This document shows positions 42,251-48,910 of a stretch of DNA of 64,000 nt, in pieces. Under the pieces are notes generated by a model. The model was not told the DNA's origin. It saw only the letters and a program-made list of their open reading frames with translations, and ran no database searches. Position 1 is the first letter of the stretch, and the number at the start of each line of letters is the position of its first letter. The stretch comes from Octopus vulgaris (Eukaryota), in contig OX597816.1 in the NCBI GenBank assembly GCA_951406725.2, positions 58,900,001 through 58,964,000 of the forward strand, in the 5' to 3' direction. The position numbers and the translations under genes were made by a program.

Positions 42251-42725
42251 GTGTGTGTGTATATATATATATGAGTACTCAGCATCTTAAATCTGTTGTA
42301 ATACTTACAACATTTAATGAAATGATGTAGTACGAAACGATCGTACCAAATTACCGGCGTAATTTGATTATAATCACCCCACGGATTTTCATGGATAACA
42401 CCATACAAAATTCTGGTGCATCTAAATTAAGTACCACATTCATTTGAATCTAAATTTTTGCTGAACTTATATATATATATATATACCAACCTCCCCTCTC
42501 CACGCCACCAGTGTTATCCAAGGGAAAGACAAAGGTCGATACAGCTTGGCACCAGTGACGTCGCAACTCATTTCTACAGCTGAGTGAACTGGAGCAACGT
42601 GAAATAAAGTGCCGTGCTCAAGAACACAACACGCAGCCCGGTCCGGGATTCGAGCTCACAACCTCACGATCGTAAGCTCGACGCTCTAACCACTGAGCCA
42701 TGCGCCTTCACATATATGCGTCTAC

Positions 42726-42788
<63 letters not shown>

Positions 42789-43141
42789 CGCATATATGTG
42801 AAGGCGCATGGCTCAGTGGTTAGAGCGTCGAGCTTATGATCGTGAGGTTGTGAGCTCGAATCCCGGACCGGGCTGCGTGTTGTGTTCTTGAGCAAGGCAC
42901 TTTATTTCACGTTGCTCCAGTTCACTCAGCTATAGAAATGAGTTGCGACGTCACTGGTGCCAAGCTGTATCGACCTTTGTCTTTCCCTTGGATAACACTG
43001 GTGGCGTGGAGAGGGGAGGCTGGTATGCATGGGCGACTGCTGGTCTTCCATAAACAACCTTGCCCGGACTTGTGTCTAGGAGGGTAACTTTCTAGGTGCA
43101 ATCCCATGGTCATTCATGACCGAAGGGGGTCTTTACCCTTT
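42088..43141. mobile_element. CORE-like tRNA SINE S4: full copy 42800-43141 (+), inverted copy 42483-42726, internally deleted copy 42088-42205
   Basis: A/B boxes; GTGTTCTTGAGCAAGGCACTT...CACTCAGCT core; flank CACATATATGCGTCTACA shared by all three. Confidence 0.85.
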
Positions 43142-46313: not shown

Positions 46314-46716
46314 TTGGGTTGGCAACTAAGTTCCCGCCGTTTTTTTATATTTTGGAATTTATTGCGTTTTTAAATTTTGAAATCTATTTTTTTCGAGAAT
46401 TCCATTTTTGAATCATTTTGAAATCGTTTCTTTTTTTTCTCTAGTTAATTTTAGATAATTTTTGATTATTTTCAGATCATTAAAATGGAATGTCAAGTTA
46501 AGAAAAACGAGCATTTTCGATACCTCCTTTTTGCTTTTAATCAAGGTTCTAAGGCCGCAAAGCTGCTCGCGACATTTGTGCTGTGTATGGAGAGGGAGCC
46601 ATAGCTGAAAGAACCGCTCGTGATTGCTATGCCAAATTCAAAAATGGAAATTTTGACCTCAAAGACGCACCTCGTTCTGGTCGTCCAGTTGAGTTCGATG
46701 AAGAGCGATTAAACCA
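46314..46716 (+). mobile_element. mariner 5' end (TIR plus HTH)
   Basis: TA-TTGGGTTGGCAACTAAG TIR; AARDICAVYGEGAIAERTARD.YAKFKNGNFDLKDAPRSGRP. Confidence 0.85.
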
Positions 46717-47115
46717 GGAGAACCTAGTCATGGCTGTCAAACAATTTCTGCGACCACATCACTCTTAACATCCGGCCACCTAACTTCCCAGACTGCAATC
46801 CCCTTGATTATTATGTGTGGGGCGCAGTTGAGCGAGAGACCAACAAAACTTGTAACACCAAAGATGAACTGAAGGCAAGGATTATGGTAACATTCACCAA
46901 CTTAAACAAGGAGACCGCCCAGAAGAGTTGCAGGAGATTCCGAAGTCATCTGGAAGCCGTGGTTGAAGACAATGGCGATTTTATTGAATAAATTTACTCT
47001 TTAGTATTCAAGATATTTTTATGTAACTTTGGTAAATATATCTGTTAAAATGAGATGTCAGAGTTATTTTCCTTTTTGCGTAATTTAGACGACAGTTTAT
47101 TCACCGCACCCTGTA
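46717..47115 (+). mobile_element. DD37D/maT-like transposase 3' end with TIR
   Basis: SPDCNPLDYYVWGAVERETN...CRRFRSHLEAVVEDNGDFIE-stop; ends CGCACCCTG-TA. Confidence 0.8.
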
Positions 47116-47158: not shown

Positions 47159-47247
<89 letters not shown>

Positions 47248-47339
47248 CTCCTTCTTCCATTTTCCTGAGCGTCTAATAATAATAATACTGTAATTGTTCC
47301 ACGTGTTGTTGTTTTTTCTGTTTTCCCGTTTGGATTAAC

Positions 47340-47385
<46 letters not shown>

Positions 47386-47607
47386 TACTAATATAGGATG
47401 AAGTTTTTTCTCTACAGAAAAGAATTCCATCAAGAAATGTGGCAGCATATTAAAATACCTTTACGGTTAAAATTATAAACAACTTATAAGAAAGGGCTAA
47501 AGAAAAATTATTTCAAAGCCAATATGCTGATTTTCCACATATAATCTACACGCAAGATTGAATTGAAGTCGGGCAAGCTAACCTTTAGAACATTTAAATT
47601 TCGTTAT

Positions 47608-47667
47608 CTCTATATTGAATCAATTTCGGAATTAATCTCATAAAAGATTTATTCGTCTTCAGTAGAG
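47608..47667 (-). ncRNA. Type I hammerhead fold (inverted copy)
   Basis: CTCTA-CTGAAGA-stem II-GAAA-TTGATTCA-ATA-TAGAG on the minus strand. Confidence 0.7.
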
Positions 47668-48182
47668 CTTACGAGAGAATATAAATAAGATACTTACATG
47701 CGCCTATGGAAAAAGCCGAAGCAAAAAAACATAAGTACATTTAAGTACCCCAGTTATATCTAAAAATATAGAGATAACGAAATTTAAATGTTTTAACGGT
47801 TAGCTTGCCCGACTTCAGTTCAATCTTGCGTGTAGATTATATGTGGAAAATCAGCATGTTGGCTTTGAAATAATTTTTCTTTAGCCCTTTCTTATAAGTT
47901 GTTTATAATTTTAACCGTAAAGGTATTTTAATATGCTGCCACATTTCTTGATGGAATTCTTTTCTGTAGAGAAAAAAACTTCATCTTATATTAGTAGTAG
48001 ACTTATGACTACCAGCTACAGAGACTGGTAACCACTATAATCTGTAGTGGCGAACAGTCAACACGTTGTTCTGAGGCTGACCAAAGAATTTTTATTTTTA
48101 GATATAACTGGGGTACTTATGTTTTTTGCTTCGGCTTTTTCCATAGGCGCATGTAAGTATCTTATTTATATTCTCTCGTAAG

Positions 48183-48242
48183 CTCTACTGAAGACGAATA
48201 AATCTTTTATGAGATTAATTCCGAAATTGATTTAATATAGAG
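48183..48242 (+). ncRNA. Type I hammerhead fold
   Basis: Stem I CTCTA/TAGAG; CTGAAGA 48188-48194; stem II GAAT.AATCT/AGATT.ATTC (closing C.C mismatch); GAAA; ATA triplet at 48235-48237. Confidence 0.7.
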
Positions 48243-48386
48243 ATAACGAAATTTAAATGTTCTAACGGTTAGCTTGCCCGACTTCAGTTCAATATTTCTG
48301 TAGCGTGTAGATTATATGTGGAAAATCGGCATATTGGCTTTGAAATAATTTTTCTTTAGCCCTTTCTTATAAGTATATATACATAT

Positions 48387-48508
48387 AAAGATTGAATTTC
48401 CCTCCGGAAGCAGTTCCGCAACCATAGGATGAATTTGATAAGATAAAATGCTTAAATAGTCTTGACTATAAATTCTGCCATGAGGGAAAACCATTGAGCC
48501 GGCGGATT

Positions 48509-48558
<50 letters not shown>

Positions 48559-48910
48559 AATCCGCCGGCTCAATGGTTTTCCCTCATGGCAGAATTTATA
48601 GTCAAGACTATTTAAGCATTTTATCTTATCAAATTCATCCTATGGTTGCGGAACTGCTTCCGGAGGGAAATTCAATCTTTCAGGATGATAAGACACCAAT
48701 TCACACAGCTAAAGTTGTTATTGAATGGCACGAGGAACATTCTAGTGAAGTTGAACATGTTTATCTGGCTACCACAGTCCCCAGGTCTCAATATTATTGA
48801 ACATTATGGCGCATATCCTCCACCATCATCACTACAAGAACTGGAGACTGTTTTTGCTGAAGGCGGTCCTAAATTTTAAGGTGTTTCCATTATTTTGTCT
48901 AACCCCAGTA
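48387..48910 (+). mobile_element. Tc1-type transposase 3' fragment with a 127-bp inverted duplication around (TA)n
   Basis: FQDDKTPIHTAK...WLPQSPGLNIIEH; 48387-48513 is the reverse complement of 48554-48680. Confidence 0.85.

Follow-up and report, generated by a model that had tools for sequence, protein, structure and literature searches.

A protein-free hammerhead repeat family of Octopus vulgaris with a Penelope-like insertion footprint

Animal retrozymes and Penelope-like elements (PLEs) are the described systems closest to the repeat that we report here. The former have been proposed to be non-autonomous derivatives of the latter (PMC7229834; 10.64898/2026.07.22.740005), and their mobilization by PLEs has so far been argued mostly from co-occurrence and from similarity to pLTRs. 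PLE insertions are described as displaying a distinctive set of traits: a partial tandem, an inverted copy truncated on its 5' side, a tail on one of the two ends and (TA)n targets (PMC8557442; PMC3846280). The purified protein of the anole PLE is reported to cut and extend both strands, using two internal start sites on the RNA that define the tail, and its in vitro substrate includes unprocessed RNA (PMC11167929). As for the hammerheads themselves, a palindromic stem III has been tied to dimer folding in those of PLEs and of animals (PMC4209133), and an AUA cleavage triplet is reported from a natural viroid hammerhead (PMC1636495).

The locus and its repeat family

The locus described here lies in a 64,000-nt stretch of the Octopus vulgaris genome (contig OX597816.1, positions 58,900,001 to 58,964,000), hereafter the window, to which all coordinates refer (Table 1). 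It is a single aged copy from a large, protein-free repeat family with a predicted self-cutting RNA motif. Between two (TA)n runs it is laid out as an inverted arm, a forward unit and a partial repeat of the start of that unit. This architecture agrees with the original prediction, which had the forward copy starting with (AATA)TAGAG at ~47765-47769, running one full period past its hammerhead and repeating its start, with an inverted copy carrying a second hammerhead fused upstream. The repeated start is 137 nt long and 93% identical to the start of the forward unit. The predicted cut of the forward hammerhead falls between 48237 and 48238; since the AATA at the junction is compatible with both arms, the start of the forward arm precedes the predicted cut position by 0-4 nt. 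Coding capacity is absent, as had also been claimed: the longest ATG ORF found on searching the doubled forward unit is 32 aa, and the ORF combining RT and GIY-YIG between pLTRs, by which an autonomous PLE is recognized, is absent at the locus. The forward unit has a GC content of 0.32 and is without a 6-nt and a 10-nt stretch, the latter of which is present in the inverted arm, within its unit ~325-469 portion.

Table 1. Features of the locus and of its surroundings in the window
Feature	Position	Strand	Details
Inverted repeat	42483-43026		two arms of 244 nt (98% complementary) flanking a TA/TG microsatellite
Mariner transposase remnants	46553-46991		broken; Mos1 HTH by Pfam
3' stub of another young repeat family	47246-47342		97 nt, between two TA runs
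Left (TA)n target run	47343-47383		abuts 3' end of inverted arm
Inverted arm	47384-47768	-	spans unit ~325-469, the cut site (intact) and unit 1 to ~231; ends 3' at site B
Type I hammerhead motif of inverted arm	47608-47667	-	stem III as in the family; 10.1/11.1 is C opposite C
AATA microhomology	47765-47768		4 nt, at the 5'-to-5' junction between arms
Full cut-to-cut unit	47769-48237	+	469 nt, no coding capacity; carries deletions relative to the family unit of 483-545 nt
Type I hammerhead motif of forward unit	48183-48242	+	stem III with a G-U wobble; 10.1/11.1 is C opposite C
Repeat of unit start	48238-48374	+	unit 1 to ~131; 3' end at site A, abutting a short TA-rich run
Right TA-rich target remnant	48375-48386		
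Perfect inverted repeat	48387-48680		147-nt arms centred on (TA)n

The surroundings of the locus are themselves rich in repeats. The stub to its left belongs to a family with 1698 first-look candidates, all 40 of the 40 scored being 99-100% identical; longer copies of that family have a variant minimal hammerhead-like motif just upstream of the stub, which is likely to be another Penelope-type end in the same target. The perfect inverted repeat to the right duplicates a piece of a very abundant, mariner-like-looking repeat. Such flanking perfect inverted repeats are not specific to the element, being found at 13 of 227 3' flanks and at 15 of 329 control TA runs. Farther off lie the second inverted repeat and the mariner remnants listed in Table 1.

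The genome as a whole comprises 2.8 Gb and is rich in microsatellites. A 22-nt hammerhead motif has at least 569 exact matches in it (283+286), as against none for the reversed control, which indicates that the hammerhead repeat is not a product of chance. A 28-nt motif downstream of the cut has 213 exact matches, and a genome search with the 469-nt unit returned 1846 candidates. We fetched 193 loci: the 30 best BLAST hits, 82 from the top of the hammerhead-motif list, 79 downstream-motif loci and 2 repeats of the present locus. The working set of 266 arms from 172 loci leaves out duplicates, arms shorter than 35 nt and arms below 80% identity. Long arms reach ~2.7 units and contain up to three successive cut sites with no ORF between them. 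Cut-to-cut units at other loci measure 483-545 nt (21 extracted, some from overlapping loci) and are 78-96% identical to the local one. Hence, the predicted 469-nt monomer stands as the length of the local unit, a deletion variant, and not as the period of the family. We found no account of this family in the literature searched on octopus and cephalopod hammerheads and retrozymes, a search confined to papers as opposed to repeat databases.

A sister family was also observed, with ~500-nt units, 2786 candidates and ~62-66% identity to the main family (for example, L206 2620-3255 on the minus strand, and L236-L260). Its hammerhead has A-U at 10.1/11.1 in all 41 of 41 motifs, and its 3' ends lie at two homologous sites (13 and 25 among 46 arms, in a query biased to the second of these, B).

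Both hammerhead motifs at the locus contain the complete core, CUGANGA ... GAAA ... UH, in order. Across 34 aligned motifs (27 from the main family and 7 from the sister family), a five-helix type I structure has 93.5% of its cells paired, as against 30-47% in slid controls, with two-sided changes in 14 of 22 pairs. Most of this covariation traces to one sister-family lineage (7 of 33 rows); as most changes separate the main from the sister family, the independent covariation events are few, and within the main family alone one stem I pair covaries. An Rfam scan of the window reported no hammerhead at the gathering threshold, and at E<=10 gave unrelated weak hits only, so that the call at this locus derives from the core consensus and the covariation. 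On these grounds the hammerhead originally proposed for the forward unit is upheld as a type I motif, with a cleavage site that is predicted.

Type I hammerheads are expected to have a paired 10.1-11.1, usually G-C. The local copy departs from this with C opposite C, which could be read instead as an extra nucleotide after position 9. Among 66 core-intact motifs this position is G-C in 29, A-C in 28, C-C in 8 and G-T in 1; a further 37 motifs are without an intact core. By prediction, folding into the hammerhead is ~7 kcal/mol less favorable than the MFE fold. Stem III of the family hammerhead is palindromic. The hammerhead is likely used in RNA processing through predicted self-cleavage, that is, in the release of monomers, possibly as a dimer via the palindromic stem III.

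Fixed 3' ends and the RNA template

The 3' ends of the arms fall predominantly at two fixed sites: 131 of the 266 are at site A (~+135; range +125 to +146 from the cut), 97 at site B (~+231; range +222 to +245) and 38 elsewhere, such that 228 are accounted for by the two sites. These end calls are uncertain by several nucleotides because the alignments run into TA. The (TA)n is reached by 217 of the 266 3' ends, and the spacing between A and B, that is, the tail, amounts to ~95 nt. Adjacent arms are joined 5'-to-5' in inverted orientation in 85 of 93 pairs, distributed as follows: A+B 59; A+other 13; B+other 8; A+A 2; B+B 2; other+other 1. Where both ends lie at A or B, the combination A+B accounts for 59 of 63 pairs (p=1.4e-13). 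The present locus is itself an A+B pair, with both 3' ends on TA runs and each arm reading through a hammerhead.

The components of a PLE insertion footprint can therefore all be recognized: a partial tandem with an inverted copy shortened on its 5' side, a one-sided tail and an AT-rich or (TA)n target. The original prediction of a retrozyme-like, reverse-transcribed and Penelope-linked repeat is thereby supported by the motif count, the statistics of ends and pairs, the helix covariation and the published traits of PLEs and retrozymes. We consider it probable that the repeat is a non-autonomous derivative of PLEs, of the same kind as the animal retrozymes. There is likewise good reason to think that this copy was inserted into (TA)n by a PLE RT/GIY-YIG endonuclease acting in trans, primed at two internal RNA sites, with the hammerhead uncut or re-ligated. 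In such a mechanism, a tandem copy would be transcribed; the PLE enzyme would nick both strands of the (TA)n; one target strand would prime at site A and the other at site B; and both cDNAs would stop at arbitrary points to be joined by short microhomology, in this case the AATA, which by chance would abut the cut. More tentatively, and on balance doubtfully, a dimer of the PLE enzyme may coordinately prime both strands at sites ~95 nt apart on a single, possibly circular, retrozyme RNA, resulting in the strict A+B rule; the hammerheads with a mismatched 10.1-11.1 would then be functional as dimers.

Regarding the form of the RNA template, our reading of the genomic copies gives a circle and an uncleaved heterogeneous multimer chances that each fall slightly short of even, with a small remainder for any other form. 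Divergence is 3.3% between arms of one locus (58 pairs) and 4.2% between passes within an arm (47 arms), as against 14% between random arms, which points to one lineage per insertion followed by ageing. Such similarity within a locus would be compatible both with a circle and with a multimer of nearly uniform units. Among rare variants, both passes share 9 versus 134 unshared, and both arms 8 versus 76, counts that accommodate either form alike. No signal of RNA editing is seen in the comparison of A>G with T>C changes (37 versus 58, p=0.47).

The circular form would entail rolling copying of one monomeric RNA circle, produced by hammerhead cleavage and ligation, and primed at A and B. It is favored by the junction being intact in 160 of 161 cut-crossing arms, a set partly selected for this; by the extension of arms to ~2.7 units; by the read-through of the cut, as befits a circular template; by the membership of passes and arms at one locus in the same subfamily; and by the RNA circles described for coral, mussel and axolotl retrozymes (PMC7229834). 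Against it stands a 6-nt deletion with just two exact junction matches genome-wide, one in the inverted arm of this locus and one in its upstream pass, but none in the 3' pass, a pattern unexpected from one monomeric circle. Comparable derived alleles that are only partly shared number 10 in 2027 sites covered three or more times, where roughly ~3 would be expected.

The competing form, to which we accord the same near-even standing, would be a linear read-through RNA, left uncleaved, from a tandem source whose units differ slightly, or else two RNAs on an enzyme dimer. The private deletion pattern matches units A-B-C of one source; the anole PLE is reported to take unprocessed RNA in vitro, with ribozyme mutants still being inserted (PMC11167929); and no cleavage is reported for 8 of 9 Xenopus dimers (10.64898/2026.07.22.740005). 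However, a source locus with the 6-nt deletion was not found in the assembly, conversion between the inverted arms after insertion would yield the same deletion pattern, and linear copying alone would shorten the copies in every round.

It is unlikely that the inverted arm originated through fold-back self-priming or DNA template switching in place of a second priming. Self-priming has been proposed for rotifer PLEs (PMC3846280), and the 5' ends of paired arms do lie within 12 nt of each other in 14 of 81 pairs, as against 6.8 in shuffles (p=0.004). However, the local inverted arm starts far from the forward 5' end and carries unit ~325-469, including the 10-nt stretch that is missing from the forward unit; moreover, fold-back alone leaves the A+B pairing unexplained.

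5' ends of the copies, and candidate partners

Where the DNA copies end is not determined by the hammerhead. The 5' ends of the arms are scattered round the unit, and in the unbiased set, the 79 loci picked by the downstream motif, every one of the 44 arms in which +1 is intact extends upstream past the cut. Across all loci, a set biased towards read-through, 161 of 166 intact starts clearly read through; of the remaining five, three read through with an indel or substitutions, one (L004) starts 7 nt before the cut and one is the present locus. Among the 266 arms only the forward arm of the present locus starts within 4 nt of the cut, with one further arm at 7 nt. Seven other apparent near-cut starts (L003, L111, L119, L132, L173, L179 and L180) were rejected because the alignment had run on into TA or the start lay downstream of +6. 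These ends do not support the earlier proposal in so far as it took the start at the cut to mean that a self-cleaved RNA had been reverse-transcribed.

The corresponding reading, in which the forward copy begins at the cut because reverse transcription had reached the 5' end of a linear RNA cleaved by the hammerhead, is improbable: it has in its favor the local start at 0-4 nt and the L004 arm, whereas the 44 unbiased arms speak against it, as does the single start among 166 where background truncation in the 5-nt window at the cut (~2.3% of crossings) would give 3.9 in that set biased towards read-through. The 4-nt overlap at the junction is of a kind common at other junctions and is most simply explained if the cDNA had passed the cut. 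As a rule for the family this reading is refuted; it could hold for this single event alone. That this one copy begins at the predicted cut is likely coincidental, and is best read as an ordinary truncation joined by microhomology. Both local hammerheads were copied intact, which implies that the template was uncleaved or re-ligated.

An autonomous partner was sought in the flanks of the 266 arms (172 loci), where no common non-family upstream sequence was found, save at one duplicated locus. Coding PLEs were sought with a GIY-YIG-like protein query, which returned 14019 candidates, of which 42 PLE-type loci were compared. The genome does contain young RT-encoding PLE-type ORFs of 776-846 aa. 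The ends of the young PLE-type elements are unrelated in sequence to the main hammerhead family, the 42 loci matching it only via embedded copies of the main or sister family. PLE ORF fragments near family copies (L043, L073, L085, L136 and L258) were set aside as partners: they are on the opposite strand or separated by TA, share no flank and look like independent insertions. The frames of 776-846 aa are those of a very young PLE-type family at L224-L231, with an RT by Pfam, a GIY-YIG-like C-terminus by similarity and an overlapping upstream frame; its 3' region is microsatellite-rich, and a hammerhead scan of the family found none. That the unit is nothing more than a coding PLE's pLTR, the copies being 5'-truncated autonomous elements, is very improbable: most PLE hammerheads are reported from truncated PLEs (PMC4209133) and the arm ends behave like PLE ends, yet long arms return to the same unit, with up to three cut sites in series and no intervening ORF, and no coding flank is common to the 172 loci.

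Comparison with known systems

The kind of element is already known, and the hammerhead family is a further member of it. Like the metazoan non-LTR retrozymes described by Cervera and de la Pena (2020; PMC7229834), it has a non-coding, low-GC unit with one type I hammerhead, in tandem and dispersed copies, and the unit size is within the 51-972 bp range given for retrozymes by Li, Clavereau and Pollet (2026; 10.64898/2026.07.22.740005). Unlike those retrozymes as described, it consists, in place of long arrays, mostly of dispersed insertions of 0.2-2.7 units whose 3' ends are fixed and whose arms are inverted; its self-cleavage is predicted and its circRNA putative, and no sequence link to an autonomous pLTR was found. 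By the definition of an 'active' retrozyme, the present locus, with one hammerhead per arm, does not qualify, whereas family loci such as L048 and L057 do. At the level of the family, the repeat would fit the sequence definition of an animal non-LTR retrozyme.

With the endonuclease-bearing PLEs, as described by Craig et al. (2021; PMC8557442), Arkhipova et al. (2013; PMC3846280) and Frangieh et al. (2024; PMC11167929), the family shares the partial tandem, the inverted 5'-truncated copy, the one-end tail, the AT-rich or (TA)n target and 3' ends downstream of the hammerhead cut. It differs in having no RT or GIY-YIG ORF and in its tail of ~95 nt, as against the 30-40 nt described for PLEs. Its pairing of A with B is near-strict, whereas for the anole PLE in vitro no difference in start site between the strands is reported (PMC11167929); the strict rule, if true, goes beyond those data. 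Like the PLE-associated hammerheads of Cervera and de la Pena (2014; PMC4209133), the family hammerhead is of type I, with a palindromic stem III and a variable nucleotide after position 9. In comparison with these, its stem III is longer (4-5 bp), its stems I and II are extended with internal loops, and its G10.1-C11.1 is inconstant (G-C, A-C or C-C, with A-U in the sister family).

Given that this kind of element was known and that the start at the cut does not generalize, what the locus adds is modest. The end statistics of its family provide a direct genomic footprint of the PLE route, together with two exact candidate priming sites.
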